Of a DNA stretch of 64,000 bases, positions 1,964 through 64,000 are shown piece by piece. The stretch is from the NCBI GenBank assembly GCA_050084515.1, contig CM114271.1:19282001-19346000 (forward strand), read 5' to 3'. The position numbers were made by a program, and so were the translations under genes. The notes under the pieces were generated by a model. That model had not been told where the DNA came from, did not search any database, and saw nothing but the letters and a program-made list of their open reading frames with translations. The first letter of the stretch is position 1. Every line of letters begins with the position of its first letter. Source of the stretch: Blasia pusilla (Eukaryota).

Positions 1964-1971
1964 TTTTGCGG

Positions 1972-4446: not shown

Positions 4447-4485
4447 CATATGTAGTTCTACGTTCCAACTTACACTCAAAATTCA

Positions 4486-35745: not shown

Positions 35746-36372
35746 CGTTACGTTTTCTACAACTCCTGTTTGTGTGTACTTGTAATTTTCTATGAGGAGA
35801 GCATCGATAGAGAAATCTGGAGTAAATTTATTTATATCATGTAATGAGCTTACTTATATATTTTTTACAGGGCCCATGGACAAAATAGCCACTTGGGAAA
35901 GTGTTCTAGGTAGATGTCAAGGTCTCCACTTATGATCCTAGATTGATTTTTACTTATCCAACTGTAGAAGCTATGCCGAAGCTGAGAGAACTTTCAGGCG
36001 GACATGAAGGTGATGTTACACTTAGGGATCCAATCTGATAACAGGTAGGATGCATTGTATTATGAATCAGTGCAATTGTTCGGAGTTCTCTCCAGTCAAG
36101 CCCTTCACTGAGTGTTTACATTGAAACCTATACACGCATGGTAGTAAGAACATGAGATTTGTTAATGAGAAGTAATGACAGATACATCTTGAACCTGTTT
36201 AATTGAAAACACTCTAAACACACAGGGGAATAAAGAGTGGTAATTGGGCCAGGCAGATATACTCAAGCCTACCAGATCCAGTCAGCGTCACTTTGACCAC
36301 ACCACGGTTGTTTTCCTGTGAAGGTGGTGGGTGTACAATCACACATAGAGATGCTGCCCACTGTATCTTCCT

Positions 36373-36659
36373 ATGAGAAAACAAAAAGTGACGAAATCAC
36401 TGAAATCTTTACAAAACTTAGAGATACAAAGTGGCCTAGTCCGTCCGTGCGCTCACAGAAGAGCTTCGATGGAACCTGAACACGGACATAACTCGACATA
36501 CGAGAAATGCGCTATCGCTGCGGCTCCTAAAACCACCTACGTCATATTACTATGACTCCTCCGACGTCTAAGTCGGAACCATCAATCTAGGCTTCTCCTC
36601 ATACAAGGGGGCCGATCAGATTTATGGTGCTTAGAGAAGTGGATGTTGAGAATCCAACA
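36373..36659 (+). repeat. LTR family Y fragment
   Basis: Reverse complement of 13240-13095 joined to 12945-12811; ends ccaaca. Confidence 0.8.
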
Positions 36660-39389: not shown

Positions 39390-42300
39390 TCTACAATATA
39401 CCCACCTTATGCATTATGTAATGGGTTCCTGAAAGTACATGGTAATGGGTTCAAACCATATCCAAGTCACTTTCATATCTGTTATTAGTGCGGCTCAAAA
39501 TAGCCCCGAACTCGTCTTAACGTTTATATGAGACTTGGATATATGAGAAAGATCCTTAGTGTTGATCCCCTAAAACTTCAACTTTTGTCTATTTTAGACT
39601 CAAAGATAGGGATTGAATCAAAATGTAATGGGTTCCACAAAGGATTCTTTTGTGTATCCTCCCTATTGGATTCTCCCCTTATTCAATTCAACTACAATAG
39701 TTCAGACCTTGAACTCGAATCACGATCAAAAAAATATTTGCAATCAATTTGTCAAAAAGTAAGCTCTACGCTGACTACAAGACCCTCATAGAATTACCCC
39801 AGCCATCATCTGGCTTAGTCGTTCTTCCATCAATAGTAGTAGAGAAGATACTCAAACAATCTCACGAAAAAGGCCAGGCTACACATAGTATGAGCTACGA
39901 CCACTACCATCTTGAGTTGAATATTTTGCAAGATGTAGCTTACTCACTTCCTATTCAGAGACATGCTTCAACTGATATTTTTGACAATGGTAGCTTTTAT
40001 CTACGTCAAACTGCATCCGTAAGAGAAAGTCTTCTCACAAATATTTATGGTACCTCTTTAGACTCTCGGTTCACAATAGAAACACGTTTGTTTCCTTTTT
40101 TATTCCCAACTACGAGGGTATTTCTCAAGAAGGTCCTCATTTGCTGATTATATGTGGAATCGCTCAAAGCAGTTATTTAGTATATTTTGTCTTCATAAGC
40201 CTTGCTCTCTCTTTATGCATTAATTGAGGCTTTCAATAGCCTTATGTTCAAATAGCAAGACTTTCATTCTTACTCGAGAACTAGATAAGTTAAGACTAGA
40301 AAAACCACATCTTCTAAAGGAAGATTAATATTCCCATTTATCTAAATATTCAATCAGCCTGCACCTTCCTGGAAGTCTTGCTTGGCACCATCGTCATCTT
40401 AAGGACTTAAAGGCAATGGTACACAAGTGGGACATGCCTCATTTTTCCTTGACTTTCACATTTGATGAAGTTTCACCAACTAGATGGCCTGAATTTGATG
40501 ATATTGAAGTCCTCTTAAAGCAATTCAACACTACATTTTCTTGGCGTGATGTTCCAAGTGAATGTGCGTAGTTGTTCCATTCAAGATTATATTCTTTCTG
40601 CAGAATTCATCCTTGATGGATTCCATGTTCTTGGTAAAGTTGTTAACTATTTACTAAGATATGAGTTGCAAGGCAGAGGTAGCCTACACTGTCACATGGT
40701 ACTCTGGGTAGACATATCTTTAGACAGGGTTACGTCAGAAATCTGCACCTACATTCCTTCCAATACAGATACATCTATTTTGACTACATCATCAACAAGT
40801 GCTAACTCCACCTATGACTTGTTGCTGCAATATGTACTAACAAAAAAATTACATAAGTGTAAGCAAGGTGTATGTGTTATTAGGGGAAAAAAAAATCAGA
40901 AATCTTATTGTAGGCTAGGATTCCTTGCGCCACCTAACCTTAATCCACTGCCTTATGTTGATCCTAAAAGCATGAGGTGGACTTACTTCCGTCCTTCTCT
41001 AGAATATCGTAACGTCATTCCATACCACTCACTTTTTTTACTCCTCTAGGGAGCTCACATGAACATACGTCGTGTTACTAGTACTAATTGGTCGTTCTAT
41101 TTGCTTAAGTATACATTAAAATCTGAGCCAACATCCTCACTTGATATTGATACACAAACTGCTAAGTGTCTAGGACTTCGTGGAATTGATGAGATAAAGC
41201 TTAAATTCATTTCAGTGTTGTAGTTAATAAGTATGTATCACCTACAGAAGTTGCACTAACATCCATGCAAAGACCCATTATGTACCGCTCTCAGGAAGTA
41301 CATTATGTTGACTCTAACCCTCCATGCAAGGTTGCATGTGGACAAAGTCTGTGTCCGTGGACATGTCCATTGACTTATGTCCGTCCTATGGAAGGACTTG
41401 TCCGTATGAGCCCCACCTTTACCTTCTTTCTCATTCCCCTTACTTGCCTTCGTGTTCCCTCCTCCCTCATTGCTCCTCTCATCCTTGCCTTGCCTTCATC
41501 ATGGACTAAAAGTGTGGGTCCCACCTCTTGGAACCCATGTCCGTGGACATGTCCAAACTTGTCCATCCATGTCCATGTCCCTCCTAAGGAAGGACTTGTC
41601 CGTTTTTGTGCAACCTTGCCTCCATGTCGGTGCAAGTCCCTATATAGAAATGCTTCAGTTCCTTGCATCCACCCAATTGTTATGTACTCAAACAGGCCCA
41701 CATCTATGAAAGATATTACTTTTATCTAGTGTTGGTCTTCCTATGAGTTACAAAAGTCCTACCTTAAAAGCACCAATGATGTCACCGGCTTAGACAATTT
41801 AATTACGTTGTTTGCAAGATAAATAGAGTTGTTCGTTTCACTAAGTTTCATCCTCTCCACCAGTGGAGCAAATTCTTTTATTCAATATTGTTGAATCACA
41901 TCCACTTTGGTTCTGCAGCTGAAATTCTATCTTCTTCCCATGAGAGCAAGACCTACTTACATGAATGTGTGCATAGGAAGTTAATACTCAGCATTGAAGA
42001 TGTATATGCTTTAGTTAAAAGTCACGCTATAAAAAATCTCTAGGGTCAGGTACATGTAGTTGAGATTCCCGCTAAAGTCACTGATGTGTTACAACTTGAA
42101 CTCAATGTAGACATTTCTGAAATGCTAACCCAATCCACTTCAAAACCTCTTTCTCCATCACAACCAAAATGTATCCATCCACATGAGCAAGATTTGCATA
42201 CCTTGAATGATGAAAAATTGTGGCTTTTCTCCCAACTTGAGGACTTATGCTTTGGTCTAGTTCTCCTTCAAGGTTCTCCTTGCTATGGGAAAACTTTCTT

Positions 42301-43473
42301 CATCAAGTTCATGTATAGTTATTGAAAGGCTTTTGGAATGTGTCCACTTCTTACTGCTCTGACAGGTAATTCCGCTGTTTGACTACATTTTGAAGCAACC
42401 ACTGCTTATTCTTCTTTTGCAATACCAATTAGAGGCGACTTGCCTAACATGCATGCTGATTCTGACAATTGTAGTATGCTAAAATCATCAAAAGTAGTTG
42501 TAATTGATGAATGTTCTATGCTTAACAAAAAACTTCTTCAGGTCGTAGGAATGCGGCTTAATGAAGCCTGCCCTGCAAAGTACGCAACTCCATTTGCAAA
42601 TAAGCTAGTTCTATTGGTAGGAGACTTTTGTGAAATTCCTCCAATATGTAACCACCACTCTTCTCCTTTCTGTGCTAGCTGCCACATAACTTCATCTACA
42701 CTATTCCACAATATGCCGACCCTTCAATTGACTACTTTCATGAAGCACAATGATGATCATGACTCTCTTGCATTCCTCAACTCTATAAGGCAACGAGTAC
42801 CTACTCCTGCAAAAATACATAGTTGTCTCTCAGATTGTTTTGCCTTTGAAGACAAGGCTATAGACTTTGTTCATTATAACACAACCATTATTTGCACTCA
42901 TGCTGAAGATGTGGACATCTTTAATTTAATAGCATTGAGAAGATTGTTTAGAGATGCATCTATTATATCAATAGATATCATATCAAATGCACCCAACACA
43001 CCTCACTTTGCATCTTGGCTAAACCATGCAACTTTCCACCAACTAAGATTTGCCGCAATAAATTGTACCGTTATGCTCACATGCAACATCAACTTAAAGG
43101 TTGAAGCAACAAATGGATCCTTAGCTACAATTACTGAGTTTATTTATACTTGAGACGCAATAAATGGTATTGTTCTCACTATTCTTTCCAGCGGTAAGTC
43201 TATTCAATTAAGTAGATCAAAGTTTGAATCTCTAAGGTATGAGTGTCAGACCAGACTTATGTTAAGAAGTCTTTTCCACTTATCCTAGGCTATGCTATGA
43301 CAGGGCATAAAAGCCAAGGATCTACAATTTCTGGTCGTTGTCTTCTAGTAATCAAATCTGTCTTTGCCTCAGGCCTTTTGCATGTCATGTTGTCGAGGGT
43401 AAAAAACATAATTCAGTTGAAGATATTTGGAAACTTAAAACCTAAAGACTTTCAAGTGTTTGCACATTCGTAG
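39390..43473 (+). mobile_element. Helitron Rep-helicase (HUH Rep + PIF1) pseudogene
   Basis: Rep: DLKAMV..WDMPHFSLTFT..E...RWPE, YELQGRGSLHCHMVLW, YLLKYTLK. PIF1: QGSPCYGKTF, VVIDECSML, PFANKLVLLVGDF.EIPPI, FPLILGYAMTGHKSQGSTI, LHVMLSRV. Stops, frameshifts and a MITE insertion. Confidence 0.93.
41327..41618. mobile_element. hAT-type MITE inserted in the Helitron ORF
   Basis: TIRs caaggttgca / tgcaaccttg; perfect 8-bp TSD CCTCCATG (41319-41326, 41619-41626). Confidence 0.93.
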
Positions 43474-45939: not shown

Positions 45940-47760
45940 ATGGGACTTGGCTGGTTGATCAAAGCCCACATCATTTTTCTCGAGGCCATGTAAAATTAAG
46001 GTTTAAGGTTTGGTGAATTTTCTGACAGTGAATGCACCTCCAAGGAGGGAGTAAAAAATGGGAGATGGTTTCGGTGATGGGTATTTTTAAATCCAAATTG
46101 GAGGTGGAAAAGGAAGATCGCAACCGTTCAAGCGGTTTAAGAGTGTGTAATACCTACCCATGCAGATTTTGAGCTCCATCCAATGATGGGAGAAGGTGTT
46201 TAGGTAGAACCAATGTAAATTTTAAGAACTCCAAGAAGAATGCTTCTTGGAAGATTGTAGTTCTTCCTCTTGAAGCAACATTTTAAAAAAAGTTCACCCC
46301 TAGTCATCCATAAATCTTTTAAAATTTCACGGTCAAGGTACTTGGTGCCAAGAGCCCAAATCATTTTTTTTCAAAGGATTTCAAGGCTTGATGACGGATT
46401 TTAAAATGCACGATGAACGAGGGAATCTGACTTTTTTTTCTATTGCTATGTGGTTAATTGGAGAGATCTGAACCGTCCATCCTCTTTAAAAGCATGATTT
46501 CCTTTAGCCATTAAAACTTGAGGGCCATCCAATGGTGGGAAGAAACAATGTATGGGATATGTTGGCAATAACGATAACTCGCTATTAGAAGAAGGGCACT
46601 TTTGGAGTTCTGGTGATTCAAAAAGCCTGAAACTTTTCTAAGGCATGTGAAATTAGGGTTTGAAGCCTCGTGATGTTTTTCAAGGTGAATGAAAAACCAA
46701 GGAGGGAGTAAAACATGGAAGATGGTTTCAGTGATGGGTATTTTTAAATCCAAATTGGAGGTTGAAAATGAAGATCGAATCCGTTCAAGCGGTTTAAGAG
46801 TGTATTATACCTATGCTTGCAGATTTTGACCTCCATCTAACGGTGGGAAAAGGTTTTTAGATACAACCAATGGAAATTTGAACAACACCAAGAAGAATGC
46901 CTCTTGGAAAACTGTAGTCCTTCCTCTTGAAGCAACATTTTGGAAAAATTTCACCCTTGGTCCTCCATAAGTCTTGAAAATTTTCACAGTCATGGAAATC
47001 GGTGCCAAGATCCTAGACCATTTTTTTGGAGGATTTCGAGGCTAGATGATGGATTTAAAAATGCACGATGAAAGAGGGAATCTGAAATTTCTCTCTTGTT
47101 GTGTGGACAACTGGAAAGATCTGAACCGTCCATCCTCTCTAGAAGCATAGTTTCCATCAGCAAGAAAGTTTGAGGTCCATCCAATGGTGAGAAGATACAA
47201 CGTAGGGGATATGTCGGCAATAACGGTAACTTGACATTAGAAGAAGGCCACTTGTGGAATCCTGGTGACTCAAAAATCCTGAAACTTTTTGAGGGCATGT
47301 GAAATCAAGATTTGAGGCTTGATGATTTTTTTCAAGGTGAATATATCTCCAAAGAGGGAGTAAAAAGTGGAAGATGGTGTCGGTGATGGGTATTTTTAAA
47401 TCCAAATTGGAGGTGGAACATGAAGATCGGAGCCGTTTAAGCGGTTTAAGAGGGTGTTATACCTATCCTTGCAGATTTTGAGCTCTATCCAACGGTAGGA
47501 AAAGGTTTTTAGGAAGAACCAATAGAAATTTTTACAATACAAAGAAGAATGCCACTTGGAAGACCGTAGTTCTTCTTCTCCAAGAAACATTTTGGAAAAT
47601 TTTCACTCATGATCATTCATAAATCTTGAAAATTTTCAAGGTCATGGAACTTGGTGCCAAGAGCCCACATTATATTTTTCCGAAGGATTTTGAGGGTCAA
47701 TAACGGATTTGAAAATGCACAATGAAAGAGGGAATATGAATTTTTCTCTCTTGCTATGTG
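45940..47760 (-). repeat. Tandem array of ~655-bp units, related (inverted) to the 350-bp arrays
   Basis: gatgg...gtgatgggtatttt at 46064, 46721, 47373; contains gatctgaaccg and ccatccaatggtg. Confidence 0.8.
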
Positions 47761-48355: not shown

Positions 48356-50865
48356 CTTTTTTTGTGACCTTTGCCATTTGCCTCAAATTGCTTGTCTCAT
48401 ACACTGTAGGAAAGAGACGTCGCAAGAGTGAAGGAGAGAAAGCTACTCAAAGAGATACAACTCCAAGGTGGCAGTCTCAAAGCAAACTGATCCGGCCCAA
48501 GCTTGATGTATCGTTTCCTCTCTCTCTCTCTCTCTCCAGAACTCCCTATGACAAAGATTACTTTTTTATAGGCTCCGTAGTGTGCCATTCGAGGTGAAGG
48601 TGAAGATTAGTCATTTTAGTGGGCCCATGGGCATTTTTTTATAGAATTATGGCATTTCCTGAACCTACAAGGGCAAGAAGTTTCCATCTCCTTGCATAGT
48701 ATTGGTACCCGTGGAGGGCCATTAGGATGATGGTTGGGATAGTCCAACAAGTCACTCTTCATGTCTGTCATGATGCACATGGGATTATACATCATGAGGG
48801 GCAAGACCCAAAATTGAGGAGAGTGTTACATCTGATAAAGTATGCCTCTACTGTTGGTGGCCAAGCTGTGCAAGTCCGTCTAGAATATGGGAATTTTTGG
48901 GAAGGTGTTGTTCTTGATAGGTTGGTTTGCATTCTTTCTAGCGGTAGGTGTGTGTCATGTAAAGTTTGCATTTGTTGGTTTGATGTATGTGATATCGGCA
49001 CATGGAGTCGTATTCCACCACCAGATCGATACTGGTGAAGGATTGTATGACACCCTTGAACAGGGTGTCATATGTGATGCATGCACTCAAAGATTTTGCT
49101 AATTTTTCAAATACGACTACAAATGATAGGAGGCTTATCATAATAGATATATCCAATGTTTTGTAGGGTTTTAGTCTCCTTGTTACAGAACTGGTAAGGG
49201 ATGCCCTAAAGTCACCTCAACCACAACAGTAAACCTGTACAGAATGATGGCAGCAATCAGTCCAGTTAATATATCCATTTCATGTCCTTAGTACATAATT
49301 TTCTCATATTCAATTCTTCCTTAAAACCGGTCATTTTATTTACAATGTACATATGAGTTTAGAAGTCCAGAATATTGCTAAGTTAGGTCAGTTGCTTCAA
49401 GGATCATGACTAGTTCCTCTTGGCAAAAGTGGTGACCTCAAGTGATCCCACTTAACGTCTTTGATCTATCCTTGCTTTCTTAGCTTCGAGTCCTTGATCC
49501 AGACTTGGCATGTAGAATTTTCCATCGGGATTCACTATGGAGGGATAACGTGATACCTTGGGTGCATCATGTATGGTGCAGTCATCCAATTGGAAAGCAT
49601 CTATGTTTCTGTTGGGATGATTGGAAGATGGGCATGGGTACCATGGAGACATTCTTGTTATGGTTGAGTGTGGTTGGGGTTGTGAACAAGTGCACCATGC
49701 ATATCTGTCATGATGCTCAAGGTCGGTATAGAGGTATCTCAAGCCCAAAAATGCAAACTGCTTTAGCCTAAATTCGCGATGTGATCACTCACATACATGG
49801 ATGTACAAAATTTCAACTTGAGTGTTGCCATATCAGATTGCCCAAATCACTAGCTAGATGAGCAAATATGTCTTCCTAGAGAGAGAGGAATGTTGGTGGC
49901 ACGCTCGGCATGCCCATGTGGTGGAGGCATGTGTAAAGATAGTGGAGTTTGGAACAGAAAATTGTCTTAGGCATATCAAATGGGATAGCATGGAACCTGG
50001 TCCTACATCTCCTTCCCTAAACAATATGGACACCAGTAGTAGTATGAATCATTCAGGATTGATGAGCTCCTCATGCAAACACCTGAAAGTTTTGATATTT
50101 TGAAAACTTGAATTGACACCTCGTGACTAATGTTAAAAAAGTGTGCAAAAGTAAGACTGACAGTAATTCCCAAGACGCACTTGAAACATCTTGAAATGCA
50201 CTTCTTTAAGCATTCAACACAAGGACACTTATTCAATGGATGATTTCAAATTAGGTATTTAGCTAATTTACACCATAGAAGTAGCCTAATTGTCCAACAC
50301 AATGTGAATTACAAGTATAAGACTATCTGTTTGTCTCCTTACAGTGCTGATAGACAAACACATCCAAAAACATCTGCGTGTGTTGTGGTACAAATTGTGG
50401 GATACAAGAGGGTTTTAAGTATGAATGTATATTAAGAGAGGGTTTTAGTTATTATTGTATATGAAACTCACACTTGATATTAGTACAATACTTGTACAAC
50501 TCACTCACTTGTAATGGATTTCAAGTGTTGAAGACTAGGTATAGTCAATACTCTCCAAGAGACCATTGCTTTGTTGGTCTACAAACGGGTATGGTACTAT
50601 ATTTCAAACATTGAATTCCATGTGTTTTGTGAAAGTGTAAATTCAATAGTATATTTATTTCATTACGAAGTTTGATAGGCACTTGAAGTTTGAAGTTGGA
50701 TATCCGTATATGTCTAATCTAAGAATCATGTCAGGTTTTCTTTTTCCTTTATTTTTAATTAGAATTACCATGAAACCACCGCTGACCTCCCAAGGTTGAC
50801 TCCCTTTTGGTCATCTACATAGAGTCTTAGCACATGATTTTAAATTATGGCAAAGAGAGCAAGTT

Positions 50866-52565
50866 GTGGCCCGCAGGTTGGGAATTAAGAGAGTGAGGTG
50901 CCCTTGTAATCAATGCAAAGGGGAGACTTATCTATCTCTCCATAGGATAGAGGAGCATCTGAAAATTTTTGACCAATTTCATCTTTTTCGCATCCCGAAG
51001 AGTAGACATGAGTGGGAATTTTCTAATGAGGAGTGGTCAATTCAAGACCACGAGTCCTTCAAGAACCAGTTTGAGAAAATCATACACAGAGCAAATCTTG
51101 ATGTAGAGCCTAGTCTACTAGATAACATGAAGAGGCGGTTGAATGTGGATGGTGATATTGATGTTCAAAAAATGTCAAATGATATGTTTACACAATATGA
51201 CAACCTCCATGATGATGAAGAAGACCCCGAAGGAGGATCTGAGGATAACCTAGGTGATAGTGGGGATGATCCAATGGATCCCATAGACAAATTTGACATG
51301 TGAATTGATGATAATCAATTTCCAAAACTTGCACAAGCATGCAAGCCCCTTTTCCCTGGCGCAAGGACATCCATTTTAGGATTTGTGATGCTGCCTTTCA
51401 AAGTTTCCGCTACCCATAACTTGCCAAACATTGTAGTTGATGAGTTTTTAAAGCGTCTTGGTAAATTGGTCCTTCTGAAAAGAAACAATGTTCCACATAG
51501 TTATTATAGGAAAGCTTGGATTGAGTTAGAACTCATACCATGCATGTTCCATTGGATGTGTGTTATTCCATGGAAATTTGAAAGATTTGACTTCTTGCCC
51601 ATAGTGCAAGAAGTCTCGGTTTAAGCAGGTAGGGAAGTCGTTAGTAATATGTAAGGTACTTCGACACTTCCCCATCATCCCAAGGATACGGAAAATGTTT
51701 AGATGTCCCACCTTGTTAGAATTTTTGGTGTGGGCAGCATGTAATGAGAGCCAGGATGGGATGGTTAGACATGCAGGTGATAGCAAAGCATGGGCTCATG
51801 TTGATGAAACTTACCCTGAATTTTGCGAAGAAAAAAGGAATTATAGATTTGGGTTAGCTCTTGATGGAGTGAACCCCCTTACAAATAAATCTAGTTCTTG
51901 GTCAACATGGCCAATTTTACTAGTAAATTATAACTTGCTTCCTTGGTTGCAAACCAAAAAATTCTTTGTTATGCTTGCACTCCTTATACTTGGGAAGGAG
52001 AGTGTGCATGGAGGGAATATCAATACCTATCTTGCCCCATTAGTTGAGGAATTAGAAGAATTATGGCAAGGTGTGGTGCTCCATGATGTTCGGAAACCCC
52101 ATGAGTAGTGGGAGTTACCTTTAAGTCAATGATCCTTTGGACTATCAATGACTATCCTGCATTAGGTACAATATCTAGGCAAAGACATGGTGGAAAGCTT
52201 GCATATACCGTATGTGGGCCTAGGATGGAATCAGATTTTTCCAAGGAGTGTGGCAAACCCATATGTGGAGGTCACCAACGATACTTGCCCTCCTCTCATA
52301 CATGGAGAGGTAGGAAGTATGGAATCCATTTTAATGGTAAAGAGGAAGCTAGACCACCACCAGAAAGGGTTACAACATATGAGATTTTCGCATTGGCCAA
52401 GGAGAATAAAGAATATGACAAGAGTGGGGGACGAGAAGATGGTCCTTTTGATCCATACAAAAAAATAGGAGTGAAGAGGAGGAGTCTACTCTTCGATTTA
52501 CCTTATTGGCAAGTATCCTAGCAACTAACCATAGGTTCTTACTACCAAAAACCATCATTGTCATG

Positions 52566-52626
<61 letters not shown>

Positions 52627-53470
52627 GCTTCATAACTCCGTGATGGGATTTCTTGATCATACATCAACATCTTCTTATTCGCCACACCTTGGATGTCATG
52701 CATGTGGAAAAGAATATTGCTGAAAACTTAGTAAAGACAATATTTGGAATAAAATATACAATCAAGGTTAGAAGAGATATGAAGGCAAGAAGAGTTCGAC
52801 CTCATTTGTGGTTACAGTCACACCCATGGAGAGTAGAAGGTCTTGTCAAACCTGATGCAAATTATATGTTATCTCCTCATGAGTTGATGGTAGTTCTTGG
52901 TAGAATTGAGGCACTCAAAGTGCCCACGGATTATTGCGGTGAGTTGAGGAAGCATGTGATACACAAGAAATTGGGAAACATGATGTCTCATGATTACCAT
53001 GTTTTGCTTCATCAAATCCTACCTTACTCCCTACTTGGCCTCATGAAAAAGGAAGTTCAGATGACCATCATGAGGTTAAGTAGGATTTTTAGAAGTATAT
53101 GTATGAAAGTCTATGATCCATCCCAACTTGAAAGATTACGTGAGGATACTATTATCACCTTATGTCTATTAGAGATGCACTTCCCCCCTGCCTTCTTTTT
53201 TTCCATCCCAAGTGGAGCAAGTATGTTTTGGCAAGGCAAGTGAGGGGAGTGGATGGAAAGTAGTATTGCGCAAGGAAGCTCGGGCCCGTAGAGTATTTGT
53301 AGAAGATAGTGAGATAACGCACATGGATAATGGAGATTTCATTGGTCTGCGTGCTTCGAGAAGCTCACCCAAGAGGATTCCTATTGTAAACACACTAGGA
53401 GCTATATAATTGACCAACCAAGAGATGGAAGAAGCATGTAGGGATTTCGCAAATGTAGTTCGTGTGTAGG
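50866..53470 (+). pseudogene. CACTA TnpD-type transposase (Transposase_21)
   Basis: RCPCNQC, VLRHFPIIPR, DGMVRHAGDSKAW, RFGLALDGVNP..SWSTWP, WTINDYPALG, LFDLPYWQ|intron|IRHTLDVMHVEKN, SHDYHVLL, EMHFPPAFF; then a jump to QVEQVCF..WKVVL (internal deletion). Confidence 0.93.
52567..52622. repeat. (TA)28 microsatellite in the transposase intron
   Basis: Directly visible. Confidence 0.97.
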
Positions 53471-54123
53471 TTTGCAAAAAAGGAAAGCTCTTCAAGTGAA
53501 GAATCTAAAGATGATAGTGAGTAAAGACAACATGGTAGGAAAAGATATGACTTGGTTGTTTTTTTGTTTGCAACCTTAACCATGGGCCATCGGGTTAGAT
53601 GTGAAACTTTCACATTCATATACATATAATAATACTTCAAATGAGGTTGATGAGAGAGTTCATGGTGATGATAGCCTTGCATTTGCTTCATTGGACGCAG
53701 GAGGGATTGTGGATGCACAAAAATCTCATTCCCAGGATGTAGCGTGCAATTTCTAGAGTCTATGACACTCTAGAAATTGCTTGCTGGTTTCTTTTGGAGG
53801 AAATCAGATTTGCATGATGTCTTTTGATAAGGAGGATGATTATGATAGAAAAGAGGAAGATGCACCTGATCATGATCACTTACGCGAGCCATGGGTAATC
53901 TTCAACCTCTTTTATTCACAAATGGTGTTGGGCTTATGCAAGTGGTGATTTTTTTGGATAGAGTACAGAGCCATTGCTGTGAAAGGCAGTATTCCAATTC
54001 TTGATTCTCTTTTGAGTACTGCAGAATTCAACCAAACGCACAGACGGAAGCGATGCAAGAGAAACTCCTCCCTATGTGCCTCAACAATGAAATACGGCTC
54101 GAGAGAGTAGTAAGAACACTTCC

Positions 54124-57080
54124 ATGGGAAGTCAAGGTGTTCCCCCACCACCATATCCTAGTGAGGCATGGCCATCTACCGGAATGCAACAGAATCCCAC
54201 TTTAGGTGGATGGTTTTCCCATGTACCCCCGCCTTCAGAATATGCTTCGTGGCCTTATGCACAACAACAACAAGAGAAATGGGCTGGTAGTAGTGTATCC
54301 TCATAACAACCATGGGTGCCATTTATAAGTATTTCTTATTTGATCTAGAGGATATTTGACCCGAAGAGACTTGAAATAGTCAAGTTTGATGTATTCTTTT
54401 GTTTTGGATTTGCTGCTCAAAGTTTTACAACTGTCCTAATTATACTATGCACTAAACTTAGGGTTCAGGACCTGATCAAGCAGATCTCTATCAAAGGGCT
54501 CCACACGCATTTTCTTATAGAGGAGGATCTGAACTACCTTCTCATGTCCATCATCTAGCATGACTCCAAGCCTTATTGATGGAGTCCAACCTAGTGAATG
54601 GACCAATGAAATGAATCAACATAAGAATGTGAATCTAAAACCCCGTTGCAAGTTAATGCCAAAGGGGTATTCAAAAACCAAGGTACATGGTTATGAGCCT
54701 TGGTTGAGTGATCTGAAAGTATGTGTCATGCGTAATCTTGACTTGTCATGCATCGAGATAAGTAGACAAGATCCAATAAGTATGGCCATGGTCACCAACT
54801 ATATAAATGAGTCCTATATTTATGTTGGTCCACCAGCTTTGGATTCTGAATTCTTACGAAAAAAGGTTTGCCAAACTCTTGAAAACGGAGAGGTCCACAT
54901 TAAAGGCCTATTGGCTAAAGAATGGGGGCCATCGAGAAGTCCCTTGTTATCCCGAAGTAAGGGCGGTGGAGTGGGAACGAATGGTAGACTATTGGATGTT
55001 AGAATATGGGAAATTCTAACATCCAACCAAATGACCAAGTCTAGGTCACATGTTGTGACTTTGAACTACAGCGGCTAGGCAGGTTTAGAGGGTTTTGCTG
55101 TAACCCCTGAACCTGACATGTGACTTGTACATAGCTAGCCTTGCACTGACCAGATTTCATTCAATGGGAATATTTATCAATCTAAGCATTTGTTTAAGTA
55201 CTCCTATGGAAGGGTGCATGTTTCCTATCGCAATTGAAGAAGTTCGAACTCTGCCAATGCTTTTTAACACATCATGTGGGATCTGTATTTAAGGGGGCTC
55301 CCAAAAGAGATATTTCTCTTCATGGTACTATAGCAGAGGATGTACCATTACCACAACCAAACTCCACAGATTTTAGTGGAGCTTCATGGGTAAGTAATTT
55401 TCTGTTTTAAAGATGGTGAGTTAATTTTTCTTCTTAGTAAATTGGTCCATTTGATAGGATGTCTTAGAGGTAAGTTTTTGTGCATATTTTTGTGATAACT
55501 TTTACATTTTCTTCATAGAGAGTCGAATCCGATATCACTACCCACCTGAATAAGGTGGAGTGCAAGTTTGATGAAGGTATACGTGATATGAGATCACAAA
55601 TTGAGGTCGGGCAAAGAGAGCAAGAAAATAAGTGGAGTGATCAACTTCTTGAAGAGAAGTTAAATGTTCATATGGGTATGGTGTCAAAATTGGCTGAGAA
55701 TGGGAAAGAAACCACCTCGAATGTCTCAACTGATGATGCACTTGTAGACAAACCATCAACTCTCAAAAGTAAGTCCAACTTCTTAGTTCTTCCTTGCTGT
55801 TTTTTTTACAGTTCTTTGGATTTTTTGAGTTAGTATCAAACACTCTTTATGATTGATTACTTACATGGCTTGTTTAGGAGGCAATCGAGATGAACTTGAT
55901 AGCCTCAATACCACAAAAATTGGTATAGAGGTTAAGAAATCCCCTACCAAAAAAAAAAAGACAAAGCCACACATGAATGTTGGCTTTCAAGATCATACTA
56001 TTGTTTCTCGTAAGATGCTTTTACTCCCCTCTTTGTAAAACTGGACTCATAATTTGGAGACATTTTACTAGTCTTACTGAGTGTGGAAATGTAAATCTCT
56101 ATTGGGAGTGAGTTGTTTGTTGTAAGATTTAGCTCCTTTAATGAGTGAGGCCTAAAAATTAGGGGTAGAAACTCTCATTGAAACTCATTTTATGTATGTA
56201 AGGGGAAGATTGATCATCCTCATGCAAGCATCAGTGAGAAAGCCAGCTCAATGACGGCTACCAATTCCCAAGGTGCATCTCTGTACCACTTACATATTTC
56301 ATTCCATGAAATATTCACTTCTTTTCTCTTGCTGATATATATATTGCACAGATTATGTAAACCTAGCTAGACAGAAGTAGAGATTGTGAGAATAAGTGGC
56401 ATAATTTACTCTTGTACATCCTGTTTGTTGTATAGGTGAAGCAATAATGGACATACAGGCTTCACCAAAACTAAAGAAGAAGGTTAAGGTAGCCAAGAAG
56501 TTGGTTGGGAGTGTAGGTAGTGTGTCAGAGTGTGATTTAAAAGTCTTGAGCACCAAGAAACAAAGAGTAAATATTAAAGCTTTCTCGAGTTTGCAAGTAA
56601 AGTTGATGTGTTCTTCGTGACAACACTATACATGCATGTGTGTTTCCATTCTCATTTTCTCGTACCCAACTAGGTGAGGCTTGTGGGCTTTTCAAGGAAG
56701 TTAACAATAGGTGGATAGAGCTTCACCAAGGTAATGAATGTGGTTATAATAGTTAATCCACTATTGTAATGTTATTATGTTGGCATCTAATCAAGTGTTT
56801 TAAATTGGTATGTATGTAGTTCCGCTTGGGAGATGAAGTACACCTTACGCAACCAAAGCTCAGCAGAAACATATTGGGTCACGGAGTAGTCTCAAGTTTG
56901 AGTGGCTGAGACAAGTTCCAGGGGAAGGATATCAGTCCGGGTTTGGTGAAGGTGGACCTGAAAGATACTACGCAACCTGATTACCAATTATGGGAGCCAA
57001 ACACATTGGACGAACCTGCCCAACTCACACTAGGAGATGCAATAGGGACTTGTATCATTTGGCTAGAGTTAAATCTTTAA
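54124..57080 (+). pseudogene. CACTA TnpA-like multi-exon remnant
   Basis: VEWERMVDYW...SNQMTKSRSHV (54965-55050) and GHGVVSSL...VKVDL..PDYQLWEP...TLGDAIGTCIIW (56875-57065) resemble En/Spm TnpA modules. Confidence 0.6.
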
Positions 57081-58181
57081 AAACCTGCTCATTAGAAACT
57101 CTGATTTTGATAACTTTCAGAGCTTTGGAGATGGCATCAAAACTTCTTGAAGCCATTTTTTTACCTTATGTGCACTTTTTTCATTCAATCTCTATTTTTC
57201 TATTTTCCATATTGAGGAGATTCTGACGCTTATCTGTAAGGACTCCTAAGGTTGGGGTTGTATTGTACACATGATAGCTATGAATCTACACATCCTTGAT
57301 CTGCAACATTGTGCTTGTGACTACTGCACCTTGAACATCTCACTCACTTGCTGTTGTTTGGGGGATTTTAGAGACAACAATGCACCATGAACATCTCACT
57401 CACTCTTTTTGAAATTGGGAAATTTTAGAGAATACAAAGACTAATAATATCATAGCGCACTCTGCTGCAAAAAGAAAGTTTTACTTTCTCATGAAAAAAA
57501 AATCACTCACAATAATTGTAGTGTGACCCTTGAGAATAACTAACATAGTCATTTGTATAACTAAGCCAGTCCATAATAACCAAATCAGTCATTGTATATG
57601 ACTCATACAGTCATTAATATTGCTATTGTAGTGACATCACTATTAATGTAGTCATTTAAATGACTCATGTCTCCAGTCATTTATCATGACTAAGCTAGTA
57701 GCACCCAATCATTTAAAATGACTCAAGCAGTAAGAACATGACTTATACATGACTCAACCAGTCACTTTATGACTCATATAGTCATTTTGAACGACTCGCT
57801 TAGTTGGAGTCATAGCATTCAAAGACATGTTGAGTCATAGAATATGACTCATGCAGTTAATGATTATGACAGTCATTTCCACCACGTGTCAAAATGACTA
57901 CAGAAATTCCATTTACACGTATCGTTGTATGAATGCATGAAGACAATGTCCTTTTTCATGTTGTGCCACATGGCCATTTGTGATTTGTTATTAAAATCCT
58001 ACTCAACATGCCATGTCATGTAATGACATGGCAAGTGTGGTTATGACTGAGTCATTTATGACATATGTCGTTCATTGGTGAAAATTATATCTTCCTCATG
58101 CCATGTCATACGCGGATGTGGCATAGTGATGTGGCGCTCATACGAGGTAGATTTGTCATATATCAACAACTATGAAATCAT

Positions 58182-58688
58182 TGTCACATCTTTTAGGCTA
58201 GATTGGTGAGATTTGGAAGAGCGCCTTCGTGAGTAGTGGAGGACATGCTCAATAGGTCGAGGATGACCTCTTGAGGCCCCGGGAAACCTGAGAGACTAGG
58301 TTTCGCCTTCGTTTCGGCTCATTTGGAGCCATATTGAGGAACTTACTATTTTAGGTAAGTACGATTTTGAGCACATGATCGAATTTCTATTTTTGGTAAG
58401 TGGACCTTGAGCTCCTACATTAGGTCAAGAACCAAGGAGGTGACTTGAGAGCATAGGTTACCATGGAGAGAGCTTGGGAGAGGGGACGTGTATACCTCAA
58501 GGAGAGAGAGCAATGGACCTTGAGCTCAAGGTCATCCGAGAATGAGGCGGAGGAGCTCTGGTCTTGCTTGCCTTGTGTGTGTAACCCAAGCCTCTCATTA
58601 GAATGGGTTTGGTTTGACATTGAGAGAGACATGTGAGAGTGCACACATTGAGGACTATGGTGTCGTGAGAGAGATTGCATCTTATTTT
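58182..58688 (+). repeat. LTR-like repeat family X, 5' ~500 bp
   Basis: Starts TGTCACATC; inverted relative to the copies at 4486, 11273 and 63533. Confidence 0.85.
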
Positions 58689-60310
58689 ACAAAGAGAGAA
58701 TGAGTGAGTGAGAGAGCTTCATGGGGGAGCTCGCTGGTTGCTCAATGTTTGGTGCAGGTTGGGGGACTGTGGTAGTGCTCACCGGAGCAAGAGGCGTGCG
58801 AGTTTGCTGTTTTTCTTTGCTCATTTTTTGTATGGGAGAGTGGCACGCGGAAGCGCTGCCCAATTTTTGATAGGAATTGAGTATGGGGTGGATTGCTCCA
58901 TGTCGGTACTCTCAGGAGCACCATGTAGCTTGCTGATTTGTGTTCTCAGAGGTTTTACATTTTTGTTGGAAGAAAGCAGTGCAGAAGCGATGTCAAATTT
59001 TGTGTAGGAGAAAGAGACATTGGGCTTTACGACAGTCCCTATCAGTTCTTACTGGAATATTCGATTCAAAATATTTTTTGGCGCGTTGTAGATCGTGAAG
59101 GTGGGCACGTTGTGCAATAAATGATGTGCAATTTAGAGTTACGAGAAAAAAGTTATGGTCAATCTTGGAAAATTGCCATTGCTAGGCGATTTTTAGGGTT
59201 AAATTGTTCAAACCCTAAACCAACCGCCGTGCCGACGGCGGCGGTCGCCATCATAGTCACCGTCAATGGTCCACCGGAAATAGTCCGCCGTCACCATCAA
59301 CGGTCAACCGTCATCATCAATGGTCCACCATCCACCATCCATCCTCCACCGTCGGCCGCTGCCGCCGCCTAGCGCTGCTCAGGGCCACGTTTGGCTGTTG
59401 TCCACCCTTTAGTTTCCATTGCCGCCATTACGGAGTGGAGGGTCTTCCAAAGCCACTGTTGATTCTTTGACTTGTGCCGCCACCACGTACTTTGGTTTGG
59501 CCGCCACCGTCATCGTAGTTTCGTCATCAACCAGTGATGGCAAGTGACCTCGGGTTAAGGTATTTGAGTTTTTATTTCATGCTACTATGTTGTGATTGGT
59601 AGTCGCTTGACGACGATCGAGTATTGTGCCGTGACATCCATAGCCACAATGTACCACAGATTTCCGTGTCGTGCCCCTCATGGCCCCACCGCACCGTCTC
59701 GATCGCGGAGCCGCTCCTTCACTAAGGAGCAGAGCGTGTGAATTGCTGATTGAGGAGGATATGCCGCCGAGTGCCGCATCCCATTCGCGAGTGCCATGCC
59801 GTCTGTAGCCGTTCCGTGCCGTCAGTGCCGTACCGGACCGTTGGACGTGCACCGCATATCGAGGAGGTTTGAGCAGCGTCAATACGAGAGGAGTACGGCT
59901 TGCTGATTGGAGGAGTTGTCTTCACGACCGAGTTGGGATCGAGATTTGCAATTGCTGAGGAGCAACATCGACACTATTGTCATGTTACCCATTCTGATCT
60001 CTTACCCTGTACGTGTAAGGGATTTTCGAGTATTGGGAAGTTATTTGGGATATTGGGTTTCGTGCTGATGCTGAGAGCATCGATGATGTATGGGTTTAGG
60101 GGACATAGACATATGTGAGATGTCCAGAGTTGAGGATGGTTTATCGATGAGACAATAGATCAGTTGATTTGCGGCACCACGTTGCTTGTTGCCGCACAAT
60201 ACACGTCTCAGTAAGAGACTGTAGATTGAGTGCCGCATGTTCAATTTTAGTGATTGAGGGATTTCTTGCGAGATTGAGAGTGATCGTGTGAGAGGGGAAT
60301 GAGGGCCATC

Positions 60311-61712
60311 ATGGCGTCCTTTCGGGATTTTGAGAGGCGAGGTAGTGGATCTGAGAGTAGCTTTGGAGGGTTTATCCGGAGGGGTGCGAGGTTTCGAGGG
60401 TCTCCACGTAAGAGACCACCTCGATCTCCTTTTGTGTCATCTTCAGACAAGGGGGAGCGTGTAGAGGAGTGTGTTAGTGATCCACCGTATACATTGAGTG
60501 GTCCTACCAGTTGGGCTTACAAGATGGACAACCGGGGTAGAGGACCGCGTAGATTTCCGGGTGTTGTAGACACTATAGAGCTACATGACTTCATTGCGGA
60601 GTTTAGGAGTTGGTGTGACTCATAACGGGCTAGGAACTCTAGAGAGTTCAACCCATTTACAACATAGAACGGTATTTTCCAACATTTAGAGGGGGCGTCC
60701 ATGGAAAATAACCATGAGTTCTCCCACAGATATGCCCAGGAGATTGAGGCATGGCAATTGTACTATGATCCATACTATGTGCCATGGATGGAGACATTCC
60801 CAGATGAGGAAGAGGAGTCAAGAGAGGCTACTTCCTCTTCCACTAGTGATGTTTTAGGAGGGGTCACTCACACTAGAGTAGTTGCACCATCTAGTCGGGT
60901 TTGTCTCAGGTTCAACCTCGTGGTTGAGTTCTTCGCTGAGTTGAGGGCGAGCTACCAGGGGTATGGACGGAGAAGTTGCGGAGCATCCATGACTTCCACA
61001 GGCTTACACTCGCTTGCATCGATTGATCAACGTCACTTAGGGAGTGATAGAGGCTTAGGCTATCTAGTCATGGTACGCGATGCTAGACCGGACCCTATGG
61101 ATACAAGTGCGGGAGGGGTTGCTTCTTATGAATACGTCCCCTACATTGAGAGATGTTTTTAGGACCACCGAGAACATTGATCACAACATGGTGGAAGAGA
61201 GCGTAGCCACCATGGATTCTGGGCGAGAGTTGTCAAGACGATTGTCTGCACTACCTTTGCAGTAACGTGGACTCCTAGATAGGTCGACTGTGGCACCACG
61301 AGCTCAGGGATGATATCAAGAGGCTGTGCCATAGAGACATGCGCCTTAAAATGCGTCTCAGTAGTAGCCGCCTGCGATTACTTGTTGGTCATGTGGTGGA
61401 GCCCATCATGAGCGCGATTGTCCTCGTCAGGGTCATGGATGTGTGCCTGAGCATGACGGAGGAGATGGTACTGCACCACGAGGTTATCAACGTGAAAATT
61501 GTTAGAGATATGGTCATACACCCACCAAGTGTTTCAGTTTACACCCTGAGTTATGTCCGGACCAAGTGCCTGAGAGGGCACCACAACGAGTAGCCGGTCC
61601 GGGTGGGCCTAGAGATCATGCACCTAGTGGTCTGGTTACGGGACGAGGAGCTGGAGTTTCCAGACACGGTGGTAGAACTGCCCATGGAGGACGTAGAGTT
61701 CCACCACCTAGA
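60311..61712 (+). pseudogene. Gag with two zinc knuckles
   Basis: ELHDFIAEFRSWCD..FQHLEG, FNLVVEFFAELRASYQG, CWSCGGAHHERDC (61383-61421), RENC*RYGHTPTKCFSLHPEL. Confidence 0.75.
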
Positions 61713-62301
61713 TGGAAAATCGTTGACAGTGTCTGTGACAGCGATGGCCGCCGCCGGCGTGGCGGCTGGTTTAGGGTTTGAACAATTTAACCCTAAAATT
61801 TGCCTAGCAATGAAAATTTTGCAAGATTGACCATAACTGTTTGCTCAAAACTCCAAATTGCACACTATTTGTTGCACAGCGGGCACAGCTTCACCATCTA
61901 CGACAACGTCAAGAAATATTTAGAATCGGACATTTCAGTAAAAACTGACGGGGACTCATTATCTGTTTGAATCATAGGTGTAGTGATCAAGCAACGGCCA
62001 GGAGATATGGCGACTTTAGCAGCATTTTGTTGTGCCATCACTTGGCCTAGTGCTTTGATTGAGGGACATGTCCATACATAGGATACTACCGTTTGTGACA
62101 TTTCTATGGAGAGGAGTGTCATGGTAGCTTTGGGGCTCGATTAAGGAGCTTCGACGCTTAGCCTATGAGCATGTGCAGACCGTGTGGAGCGAGACGTTTG
62201 CACTAGAGTGTGATAGGTCAGAGGAACCCCAGGTAGGCAGGAGTGTTGCTATGACCCCTTTGGAAACCACCCGGATTTTGTGATGCATCCCAGAGGAGGA
62301 T

Positions 62302-63250
62302 ATTCGGGTGTTGGATCTCTTTGGAGGGATGAGCAGTGGGTTAGCTGTTGTTTTGTACGCTGGAGTGCACATACAATAGTACGTGTATGTGGAGATTGAT
62401 GATGTTACAAGACGCGCTTCACTTCACCGTGTGGCGCAGTTATGCCTCCGTTTTCCCAACTTCTTGTCTGCGTCCGCCATTCAGGGTTACTAGAGTTCCT
62501 TACCGAGGGACATTTCATTGTTGGGGGCGCATGACTTGGAGCGGGTAGGGATTGTAGGCTTGGTCATTTCTGGTTGGCCGTATCAGGGCCAATCGAGTGT
62601 TGGACGAGGTAGCAAGTTAGCTAACACTCGGTTGAGGTTGTTCTGGGAGATGATGCGGATCTTGCAAAATTTACAAGAGCATTAGCCTCATTCTCCAGCA
62701 TACATTTTGGAGAATGTGCCGATTTTGGGCGATTCGAGGTCCTACGTGGTGACGAGTGCACATTAGGTGCGCGTATGGATCGGCCCCACAGTGTTGTTAG
62801 ATGCGGAAAGTGTAGGTTCTAGAGCACACCGCCCGTGTCTTTGGTGGACCAACTTGGTACCATATGAGGTGTTGCGGAGGGCTTACGCAAGAGTGGAGCG
62901 TCCCTTTGATTTGTTGGTGGATTCTGTATTGGATTTGGGCGGTCAATCACAGGAAATTAGGCTAGATGATCGACCACCGTTGATTGTGGTCAATAGGATT
63001 GGTAGGCCACGGGCAACCTTTCCCACATTGGTGAGTTTTCCCGCTTCCTATGCATTCAAGGAGGCCGGAACTGGCTTGGTTTGGGATGACCAAGTACAGA
63101 GGTTGGTGGATCTCAACGCAGATGAGCGAGAGCGAGCGATGGGATTCCCCACAGGAGTGACGGCAGTACCGTCACTATCAGAGGCATCACGACGTCATGT
63201 CTTGGGTTAGGCAATGGACTTAAACTGCTTGACATGGATTTTTAGCTTAG
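62302..63250 (+). pseudogene. DNMT3-like cytosine-5 DNA methyltransferase domain (motifs I-X, linear order)
   Basis: One frame with only point stops: IRVLDLFGGMSSG (I), YVEIDD (II), RDI (III), SGWPYQGQS (IV, Cys>Tyr), YILENV (VI, 62701), RAHRPCLWWTN (VIII), DERERAMGFPTGVT (IX), SRRHVLG*AMD (X). Confidence 0.93.
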
Positions 63251-63532
63251 GAGTAGCTGAGCAGCGTCGTTTGAGGATGCGACAGATCACAACTCTTACG
63301 CTAGTGAGCCCCATGCCTACGGAGATGGTTGAGGCAGTGGCTGGCGGCCAAACTCGAGGAGATCGACACACCAAAGGTGATCGGAAGAGACACCCTTGGA
63401 CTTCTTGGGATGTTTTGCAGGTACGCCAAGAGATGATAGCCACAACATTGAGCGTGGTTCCGGGTACTGCATGTGGAGATGAGAGTTCTATTGTCCGAGG
63501 CGGGGTTTCATCATAGCAACCATCGACATCCG

Positions 63533-64000
63533 TATCGTGCAAATACACATCGCTACACAACATACATCGTTGTCATCTAACACACACACAAACACACACG
63601 ATCCCATGCTAACTCATGGCATCCAAACAGCGAGACAAGAAGTACTAAAATATCTCCAATAAAGTAAGATCCAATCTCTCTCCACACTATCTCACACCAT
63701 AGCTCTCAAAGGTGTGCACTCTCTCTCATGTCAAACCAAACCCACTCTCCTAATGAGCGGCTTGGGTGACACTCACAAGGCAAGGGACCATAGCTCCGCT
63801 GCCTTATGCCAAGAGGTTCAACAAAGAGAGAATGAGCTCTCAAGCTCTCTCTTGGAGGTATATCCCCTTCCCTCTCCCAAGCCCTCTCAACCGTAACCTA
63901 TTCTCCCAAGTCACCTCCTTGGCTCTTGACCTGATGTAGGAGGTCAAGGGCCACTTACCAAAAATATAAAGTTGATCATACACTCAAAATGATACTTACC
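63533..64000 (-). repeat. LTR-like repeat family X (runs off window)
   Basis: Starts tatcgtgc; matches 11273-11693 and 4686-4813. Confidence 0.85.

Follow-up and report, generated by a model that had tools for sequence, protein, structure and literature searches.

Does the cytosine methyltransferase frame at 62302-63250 of this 64,000-nucleotide stretch of the Blasia pusilla assembly (contig CM114271.1; hereafter, the window) belong to a retrotransposon, and what would such an element do with the enzyme? A preliminary description had proposed a Gypsy element of a land plant encoding its own DNMT3-like C5 cytosine methyltransferase (C5-MTase). The window very probably holds two dead copies of a Ty3/Gypsy-type family whose first open reading frame (ORF1) encodes gag, an aspartic protease and a DNMT3-like C5-MTase. 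This confidence applies to identity and architecture; the mechanism is far less certain.

The methyltransferase domain at 62302-63250

Read in the frame of position 62302, the plus strand from 62281 to 63300 translates into one colinear C5-MTase domain with six in-frame stop codons (TGA at 62281; TAG at 62377, 62491, 62683, 62764, and 63208). Five of them lie inside 62302-63250, and the sixth (62281) is located just upstream. The following motifs were recognized by translation in this copy, designated copy 2.

62311-62328, plus strand: motif I, LDLFGG
62386-62400, plus strand: YVEID
62575-62589, plus strand: motif IV, WPYQG, with the catalytic cysteine replaced by tyrosine at 62581-62583
62704-62721, plus strand: motif VI, ILENVP
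62818-62853, plus strand: motif VIII, SRAHRPCLWWTN
63124-63150, plus strand: motif IX, ERERAMGFP
63190-63207, plus strand: motif X, RRHVLG

The catalytic motifs I, IV, VI, and VIII are all present in order, but PYQ replaces PCQ and stop codons interrupt the frame. The Pfam profile PF00145 matched copy 2 narrowly above its cut-off (23.6 versus 22 bits, E = 4e-5) and covered motifs IV to VI only; scores of 27-51 bits were obtained with relatives. In a phmmer comparison of copy 2 with the PDB, DNMT3A was the top match (E = 1.5e-8, in two colinear stretches) and DRM2 reached only 0.3. The DNMT3A alignment includes the matches AHRARYFWGN, ERVFGFP, and RQRLLG, in agreement with the initial proposal that motifs VIII to X resemble DNMT3. 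At E <= 1e-3, 146 database proteins of near length and 25 longer ones matched the domain (best E-value, 9e-131), and the reading of copy 2 as a DNMT is therefore not due to chance. The presence at 62302-63250 of a complete C5-MTase domain in one frame, broken by point stops, is thus confirmed.

A profile built from 16 family members was compared with the PDB. It ranked DNMT3A (8.7e-26), DNMT3B (3e-24), and DNMT3C (2e-23) ahead of tobacco DRM (1e-14), DRM2 (4.5e-12), M.HhaI (2.8e-7), and DNMT2 (3.8e-5); DNMT1 was absent from the PDB matches of this profile at E <= 0.01. The DRM alignment was permuted, profile positions 53-183 (N-terminal) pairing with DRM residues 222-351 (C-terminal part). The domain of L003, an uninterrupted relative, was modeled with AlphaFold (pLDDT 87.8, pTM 0.89); here and below, L numbers designate metagenome-contig loci and P numbers database protein models. 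All 38 matches listed to rank 50 in a fold search with this model were DNMT3A, DNMT3B, or DNMT3C chains (E-values from 3.9e-19; target TM-score of 0.75-0.83 for catalytic-domain entries; identity of 20-23%). The F-G-G of motif I, PCQ, ENV, and the arginines of motif VIII were invariant or nearly so in 20 sequences, and the look-alikes in the ESM Atlas were labeled 'C5 methylase, Streptophyta', nothing beyond. The motif order had been described as linear, unlike that of plant DRM; the colinearity with DNMT3A, the E-values (8.7e-26 versus 1e-14), and the predicted fold all agree with this view. Judged from profile ranking and structural modeling, the domain is of the DNMT3 type.

Architecture of the family

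The gag - zinc knuckle - protease - DNMT gene model P0126 of Marchantia was used as a tblastn ruler for the window. Genomic reads from a run labeled as the host species were mapped at a likeness of at least 80%. The following parts of the family were identified.

135-821, plus strand: copy 1, decayed gag (C-terminal part) and the spacer leading to the protease (tblastn, P0126 residues 377-599)
812-1261, plus strand: copy 1, retropepsin-type protease region (DSG at 935-943, MGFSLDYW at 1196-1219, GWQSGD at 1244-1261)
1658-1966, plus strand: copy 1, N-terminal half of the DNMT in frame 2 (motif I LDLFGG at 1658-1675, YVEID at 1733-1747, WPCQG at 1922-1936)
3830-4476, plus strand: copy 1, post-integrase tail of pol, including a PHD finger (tblastn, P0145 residues 1398-1603 at 3830-4440)
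4479-4813, plus strand: copy 1, terminal repeat junction, B end (4479-4681) followed by A start (4688-4813), by sequence comparison
10465-10834, minus strand: separate fragment of the family's protease region (tblastn, P0126 residues 613-729, 40-47% identity)
11275-11693, plus strand: further copy of the A-type terminal repeat (84% identical to 63535-63959)
58184-58689, minus strand: terminal repeat in inverted orientation (76% identity with 63660-64000 read as its reverse complement)
58690-60523, plus strand: copy 2, probable leader ahead of gag, non-coding and in high copy number (DNA depth about 800-1800, comparable to that of gag)
60524-61553, plus strand: copy 2, gag with stops and a frameshift (MDNRGRG at 60524-60544; tblastn, P0126 residues 9-354 at 60539-61553)
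61723-61956, strand not assigned: copy 2, 234-nt filler in place of the protease (inverted duplicate of 59034-59266, 82% identical)
62128-63516, plus strand: copy 2, linker, DNMT3-like domain, and ORF1 tail (P0126 residues 821-1243 at 62128-63414, 53% identity)
63517-63525, plus strand: copy 2, ORF1 stop TAG CAA CCA, in frame with the DNMT (homologous stop in related loci)
63535-64000, plus strand: copy 2, terminal repeat, cut by the window end, with A followed by B from 63968 (sequence comparison); RT, RNase H, and integrase are absent between 63525 and this repeat

Copies 1 and 2 display 82-86% DNA identity overall. Positions 1-134 are 81% identical to 61576-61709, and the shared DNMT half (1658-1966 versus 62311-62619) is 83% identical, with 41 transitions and 11 transversions. 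P0126 residues 597-986 align with 812-1966 of copy 1 at 47% identity. Copy 1 had been reported to carry the DNMT directly after the protease and to keep the catalytic PCQ; both features are found in frame 2 at the coordinates listed above, starting with the DSG at 935-943. This copy contains nine stops within 812-1966, breaks off at 1966 after motif IV, and is separated by unrelated DNA from its own pol tail, in which the PHD profile PF00628 matched 4087-4476 with stops read as X (E = 6.2e-10). The interruption holds short dispersed repeats (2102-2260 matching 2561-2719, and 2247-2382 matching 36371-36506), and the stretch 2102-2734 is probably another small transposon.

The DNMT had also been placed downstream of gag. 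In copy 2, the DNMT sits behind gag only because the protease part is missing, replaced by the filler. Reads leave the window sequence after 61712 (613 reads) and enter it at 61955 with sequence encoding GWQSGDGR (620 reads), indicating that most copies of the family harbor a protease at the site of the filler. Likewise, the window sequence is left by 862 reads after 63478 and joined by 2260 at 63535; these loose ends indicate that, in most copies, the sequence goes on past the ORF1 tail instead of passing straight to the repeat as in copy 2. The gag of copy 2 contains a zinc knuckle, CWSCGGAHHERDC, at 61383-61421. The stretch preceding it, 58690-60523, gave RNA of the same polarity as gag and no protein match by tblastn. 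Pfam returned no match on the decayed gag and protease of the window, whose identity is based on tblastn to relatives; Asp_protease_2 was called in relatives P0140, P0178, and L039. Both window copies are dead, as they contain large internal deletions and many stops, most of which are C-to-T or G-to-A changes.

An exhaustive search returned 1319 matching cluster representatives at E <= 1e-3 and 170 at E <= 1e-30, many of them polyproteins of 1000-3456 residues. Among the 146 near-length and 25 longer proteins, the named ones (n = 27) all came from liverworts, namely Marchantia polymorpha (16), M. paleacea (1), Calypogeia fissa (4), and Riccia sorocarpa (1), or from Sphagnum (5). According to Pfam, the Marchantia models P0125 and P0126 consist of gag, a CCHC knuckle, protease, and DNMT, P0128 of DNMT, reverse transcriptase (RT), and RNase H (RH), and P0178 of CCHC, protease, DNMT, RT, RH, and integrase. 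The order zinc knuckle - protease - DNMT - RT - RNase H - integrase is represented by P0178, P0128, and P0140. Relatives carry RVT_1, RT_RNaseH, Integrase_H2C2, and rve, in that order. The protein order is that of a Ty3/Gypsy element, the zinc knuckle (61383-61421) and the protease DSG (935-943) being seen in the window and RT, RH, and integrase in the relatives.

A second domain order, RT - RNase H - DNMT - integrase - PHD, was observed in P0145, P0151, P0165, and P0166, the latter being a 'pol' of the chlorophyte Scenedesmus sp. This pol was the only one of 20 cluster representatives for which a name was obtained, and none was from Klebsormidium. In a midpoint-rooted, quick-search tree restricted to 37 transposon-borne DNMT domains, the two orders formed two clades, each with a support of 99. 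The window copy fell into a 14-row clade (support 99) together with nine rows from liverworts, one from Sphagnum, and three from metagenome loci, its nearest neighbor being a Calypogeia sequence (63% identity). The second order was considered for the window elements and rejected since the protease directly precedes the DNMT in copy 1.

Scanning of metagenome contigs yielded 507 candidates; 333 of these stood up to confirmation, and 80 were retained. The DNMT match was free of stops in 7 of the 80 loci. The DNMT was located directly upstream of RT in all ten loci that were mapped. Where the locus was long enough, the order was gag - protease - DNMT - RT - RNase H - integrase - PHD tail; one locus, L050, is disrupted past RNase H. 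L039 contains a 1369-residue gag-protease-DNMT ORF, and DNMT, RT, and RNase H share one ORF in L066. Uninterrupted members of the family therefore keep the domain, as the preliminary description would have it. The DNMT is intronless and in frame with gag and protease in several species, which argues against the one-off capture of an intron-containing gene.

Selection on the DNMT was estimated by the NG86 method for 13 loci with at most one stop. The dN/dS ratio was 0.14-0.17 between L001 and the L003 group (dS of 1.7-2.1, near saturation), 0.13 for L037/L039 (dS of 0.26), 0.08-0.10 for L060/L066/L067 versus L075 (dS of 1.1-1.2), and 0.09 for L060/L066. The overall range between sublineages, 0.08-0.23, is not neutral, and the DNMT domain has been kept under purifying selection. 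The near-identical copies L003/L004/L005 gave 0.76-0.96, as expected for decay after insertion. In copy 2, all six stops result from C-to-T or G-to-A changes at positions where relatives or copy 1 keep Gln or Trp, a decay expected of methylated DNA. The CpG observed/expected ratio (0.70-0.93 in the copies, 0.29 in the AT-rich flank, 0.47-0.60 in related elements) gave no clear signal and was not used.

Terminal repeats, host, and abundance

Terminal repeats were examined in 18 loci. Full split direct repeats (A1 ... B1-A2-B2) were found in three of them, L066, L078, and L056; two others showed A1/A2 only, the rest lying past the end of the locus, five showed a B1/B2-like pair behind pol, and eight gave nothing clear. 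The complete elements span 5634-14948 in L066, 5271-14940 in L078, and about 1678-10805 in L056. All three start with TGTCATG, end with CACGACA (5'-TG...CA-3'), and are flanked by 4-bp target duplications (GGTC, CCAA, and AAGG). In these elements, two additional bases link B1 to A2, as in a circle junction. Long terminal repeats (LTRs), that is, identical direct repeats at both ends, were not found in L066, L078, and L056, which have split direct repeats instead. The elements are of the Gypsy type by their proteins and integration but are not textbook LTR elements.

In copy 1, the A start comes two bases after the B end, downstream of the PHD tail. Positions 4479-4681 are 87% identical to the reverse complement of 58184-58386, and 4688-4813 are 89% identical to 63535-63660. 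The B-to-A junction recurs in many reads, of DNA as well as RNA (joints 58181/58182 to 63535/63543). The outer end of the inverted repeat meets low-copy DNA at 58183/58184, where the read depth rises from about 8 to more than 1000. Within the repeat, position 126/127 is a recurrent breakpoint, beyond which most copies continue differently. An inverted-terminal-repeat organization resembling DIRS1, suggested by the inverted arrangement of 58184-58689 and 63535-64000, was rejected as the general structure because the repeats of the three complete related elements are split and direct, none of them being inverted; DIRS1-like inverted repeats may nonetheless occur in part of the window's own family.

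An embryophyte host had been proposed on the basis of expansin and NCS1. The window contains an alpha-expansin exon (22327-22912, minus strand; DPBB_1, 3.9e-22), and its segment 22327-22842 finds its best matches in two liverworts, Marchantia paleacea (77%) and Calypogeia fissa (70%), mosses and vascular plants not exceeding 63%. This result agrees with the proposed host, a land plant and probably a liverwort that is absent from the protein collection. The family has multiplied in this land-plant host, as had been anticipated. The mean DNA depth was 8.2 (range 4.7-15) over the flank 55001-58000, 1565-2497 in DNMT bins, and 1562-1791 in gag bins; relative to the flank, the family amounts to about 190-300 copy equivalents, assuming that the flank is single-copy and that the reads are, as labeled, from the same species. 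Since most reads are less than 90% alike to the window sequence, the window copy is an old member of the family.

Three RNA runs gave zero depth in nearly all bins of the flank (at most 0.25). Over the DNMT, the depth reached 26-93 for reads whose first mate lay on the minus strand, versus 0.35-7.5 in the other orientation. Given the usual stranded library, a first mate on the minus strand corresponds to sense RNA, the predominant form of transcript in this family. Copies other than those of the window must be the main source of the DNMT RNA.

Features of the window outside the family were as follows.

8195-9300 and 33933-34666: arrays of tandem repeats of about 350 nt, 25 kb apart, with a common unit
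40519-43153, plus strand: Helitron remains (Helitron_like_N, 4.1e-7; PIF1-like helicase, 4.4e-15)
45977-47585: tandem repeats of about 655 nt
50800-55078, plus strand: remains of a CACTA/En-Spm-type transposase (Transposase_21/tnp2, 5e-37), with matches to the Transposase-associated domain and DUF4218 below Pfam cut-offs

A stop codon behind the DNMT and the role of the enzyme

In L001, L003, L004, L037, and L039, gag-protease-DNMT and RT share one frame with a single stop between them (at 4509, 11210, 1470, 2081, and 5083, respectively), followed by CAA or CAG. Among the 73 loci with enough downstream sequence, 38 displayed an in-frame stop-CAR-YYN 196-325 nt past the DNMT match, most often at +226 (26 loci), compared with a total of 14 hits in the two other frames. 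The nonamers of the 38 stops were TAGCAACCC (23 loci), TAACAACCC (10 loci), TAGCAGTTA (2 loci), and TAGCAACCA, TAGCAACCT, and TAGCAATCA (one locus each), the commonest context being TAG CAA CCC. No stop separates DNMT from RT in the L066 sublineage. UAG_CAR_YYA is given as the type I readthrough context of plant viruses in the review text (Firth and Brierley, 2012, PMC3542737). From its position and context, the stop behind the DNMT is probably leaky, which would place the protease and the DNMT on the abundant Gag side.

We propose that Gag-protease-DNMT would be the abundant product and the fusion to pol a rare one, and that the DNMT would travel with Gag into the particle, to be freed there by the protease. 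The enzyme may then methylate the new cDNA or the DNA of the integration site, with the integrase-linked PHD finger reading chromatin; we hold this last step to be possible and advance it tentatively. Methylation of cDNA or of the integration site has been put forward for DNMT-carrying retrotransposons in the main text of de Mendoza et al., 2018 (PMC5890265).

Several observations weigh against parts of this account. With respect to identity and architecture, neither window copy is intact, and tblastn detected no RT, RNase H, or integrase of the family in the window. Copy 2 has lost its catalytic cysteine. Loci elsewhere are mostly decayed too, with stops in the DNMT match in 73 of the 80 kept; uninterrupted DNMT copies were seen in relatives, and the host is represented here by the two broken window copies. 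The DNMT3 assignment comes from PDB ranking and predicted fold rather than from a tree including host DNMT3 and DRM. For the window's own family, the terminal repeat could be reconstructed only in part. Over the terminal repeats (58001-58600 and 63401-64000), RNA running against the 3'-end orientation of the repeat was 3-5 times as abundant as same-sense RNA, which suggests that the repeats are transcribed in antisense or that some members of the family have an inverted 5' end. With respect to mechanism, the strict CARYYA rule fits only 4 of the 73 loci, plus the window copy. When the DNMT of the Klebsormidium Gypsy element was tested in isolation in yeast, no methylation was observed, a result that its authors, in the text of PMC5890265, call inconclusive.

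The same yeast result would also fit a DNMT that acts on RNA, adding m5C to the genomic RNA or to a tRNA primer, or one that is a non-catalytic module binding DNA or chromatin, like DNMT3L. RNA methylation is raised for another class of enzymes in the same text (PMC5890265), and production on the Gag side of the stop would bring the DNMT to where RNA is bound. However, the full catalytic set is kept in uninterrupted members, which a pure binding module would not require, and the closest structures are the DNA enzymes DNMT3A, DNMT3B, and DNMT3C, DNMT2 being far behind (3.8e-5). We consider these roles rather unlikely, though they survive better than the other alternatives.

The DNMT might instead mainly help the host or tame the element, self-silencing of new insertions keeping the family tolerated, an idea raised in the discussion of de Mendoza et al., 2018 (PMC5890265). 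The pattern of mutations is that of methylated DNA, with the excess of transitions over transversions (41 versus 11) and the six C-to-T or G-to-A stops. Nevertheless, decay by transitions is expected in any methylated transposon regardless of the methylating enzyme, and the copy equivalents (about 190-300 times the flank depth) and sense RNA in three runs imply that the family is not effectively silenced. Taming of the element is an improbable main function. That the domain is a host DNMT3 pseudogene or a one-off capture lying beside retrotransposon debris is highly improbable: bryophytes do possess host DNMT3 genes according to the text of PMC6453930, and this region of the window is a nest of transposon fragments, but the intronless DNMT is in frame with gag and protease in Marchantia, Calypogeia, and Sphagnum models and in ten of ten mapped loci, the second window copy has the same protease-DNMT junction, a one-off capture does not fit the multiplied read depth, and a pseudogene does not fit the low dN/dS between sublineages.

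Relation to known systems and significance

A Gypsy element with its own DNMT3-like enzyme, as proposed for the window, has its closest described counterpart in KnitGypsy-Dnmt3 of Klebsormidium nitens. As presented in the main text of PMC5890265, this element also has an intronless DNMT3-type domain with unrearranged motifs in a Gypsy-type coding region, with a Ka/Ks below 0.2 (dN/dS of 0.08-0.23 here). The legend of Fig. 4c in PMC5890265 gives DIRS-like repeats combined with Gypsy-like domains, and, going by the wording of that legend, the split direct repeats found here fit. The two differ in that KnitGypsy-Dnmt3 is described there as present in few copies in a charophyte alga, whereas hundreds of copies occur here in a liverwort-like host; the comparison is of descriptions, not of sequences. 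SymbioDIRS-Dnmt3 and SymbioLINE-Dnmt of Symbiodinium are likewise, in that text, retrotransposons with a DNMT under purifying selection. De novo CG methylation in yeast is reported for the SymbioDIRS DNMTs, CG methylation being attributed in PMC5890265 to the Symbiodinium DIRS enzymes only. The Symbiodinium backbones are, in contrast, tyrosine-recombinase DIRS or LINE elements, whereas the present family has a DDE integrase (rve, Integrase_H2C2) and 4-bp target duplications.

Among cellular enzymes, animal DNMT3A, DNMT3B, and DNMT3C and plant host DNMT3 share the colinear motifs I to X, and the animal enzymes are the best sequence and fold matches. Unlike all of these, the domain of the window is part of a Gag-protease polyprotein with no PWWP or ADD on the same polypeptide, and the only reader-type domain is the PHD finger at the far end of pol. 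Plant DRM is a distant relative of DNMT3, circularly permuted and with E-values 11-14 orders weaker than that of DNMT3A. Two further likenesses concern the stop and the reader. Type I readthrough of plant viruses and gammaretroviral gag-pol also place a single in-frame UAG followed by CAA or CAG before the polymerase; in the present family, the stop lies past the DNMT, with protease and DNMT on the Gag side, and is followed mostly by CCC, not YYA. Split direct repeats in the arrangement A1 - internal - B1-A2-B2 were reportedly described by Goodwin and Poulter in Ngaro/PAT-like DIRS elements. Those elements have a tyrosine recombinase and are not known to make target duplications; the elements studied here differ by their integrase, TG...CA ends, and 4-bp duplications. 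Chromoviruses carry a chromodomain after the integrase, according to the preprint text (bioRxiv 10.64898/2026.05.21.726589); a reader module likewise follows the integrase here, but it is a PHD finger (PF00628).

No land plant was named as host of a DNMT-carrying retrotransposon in the open literature searched, a scope that leaves supplements and subscription papers, such as the Marchantia genome paper, outside. In the accessible parts of these sources, the hosts are given as 'charophytes' or 'streptophytes (Gypsy-DNMT3)', always with citation of K. nitens (PMC5890265, PMC12344493, PMC11982613, PMC6453930, PMC5784723, bioRxiv 2021.02.12.428880, and bioRxiv 10.64898/2026.05.21.726589). The Gypsy-DNMT3 kind of element, known from Klebsormidium, is now found in a new host group, liverworts and Sphagnum.

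The window copies themselves are ordinary dead transposon debris. The interest lies in the family: cytosine methylation is the host's main weapon against transposons, and a transposon bringing a de novo enzyme is therefore a paradox. The purpose of transposon DNMTs is unsolved eight years after the first report. The systems previously in print, dinoflagellates and one charophyte alga, are not easy to manipulate. Close relatives of the family are annotated as 'hypothetical proteins' in Marchantia polymorpha, Calypogeia, and Sphagnum. The question thus moves to land plants, among them Marchantia polymorpha, a transformable model for which methylomes have been published and whose annotation holds a dozen such gene models. 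Experimental handles are offered by the DNMT on the Gag side of a probable leaky stop, the PHD finger after the integrase, and the split direct repeats with their target-site duplications.

More broadly, these elements may represent, rather than sporadic captures, one old green-plant lineage of integrase-bearing retroelements characterized by a DNMT3, split direct repeats, and a PHD finger that follows the integrase, with two domain orders (protease-DNMT-RT in bryophytes; RT-RH-DNMT-integrase in the Scenedesmus pol and in contigs), and still active in liverworts in hundreds of copies, with the DNMT produced at the Gag level via a leaky stop. We regard this unified scenario as doubtful. If it is true, a DNMT3 made by a transposon would contribute to, or manipulate, the methylome of the host.

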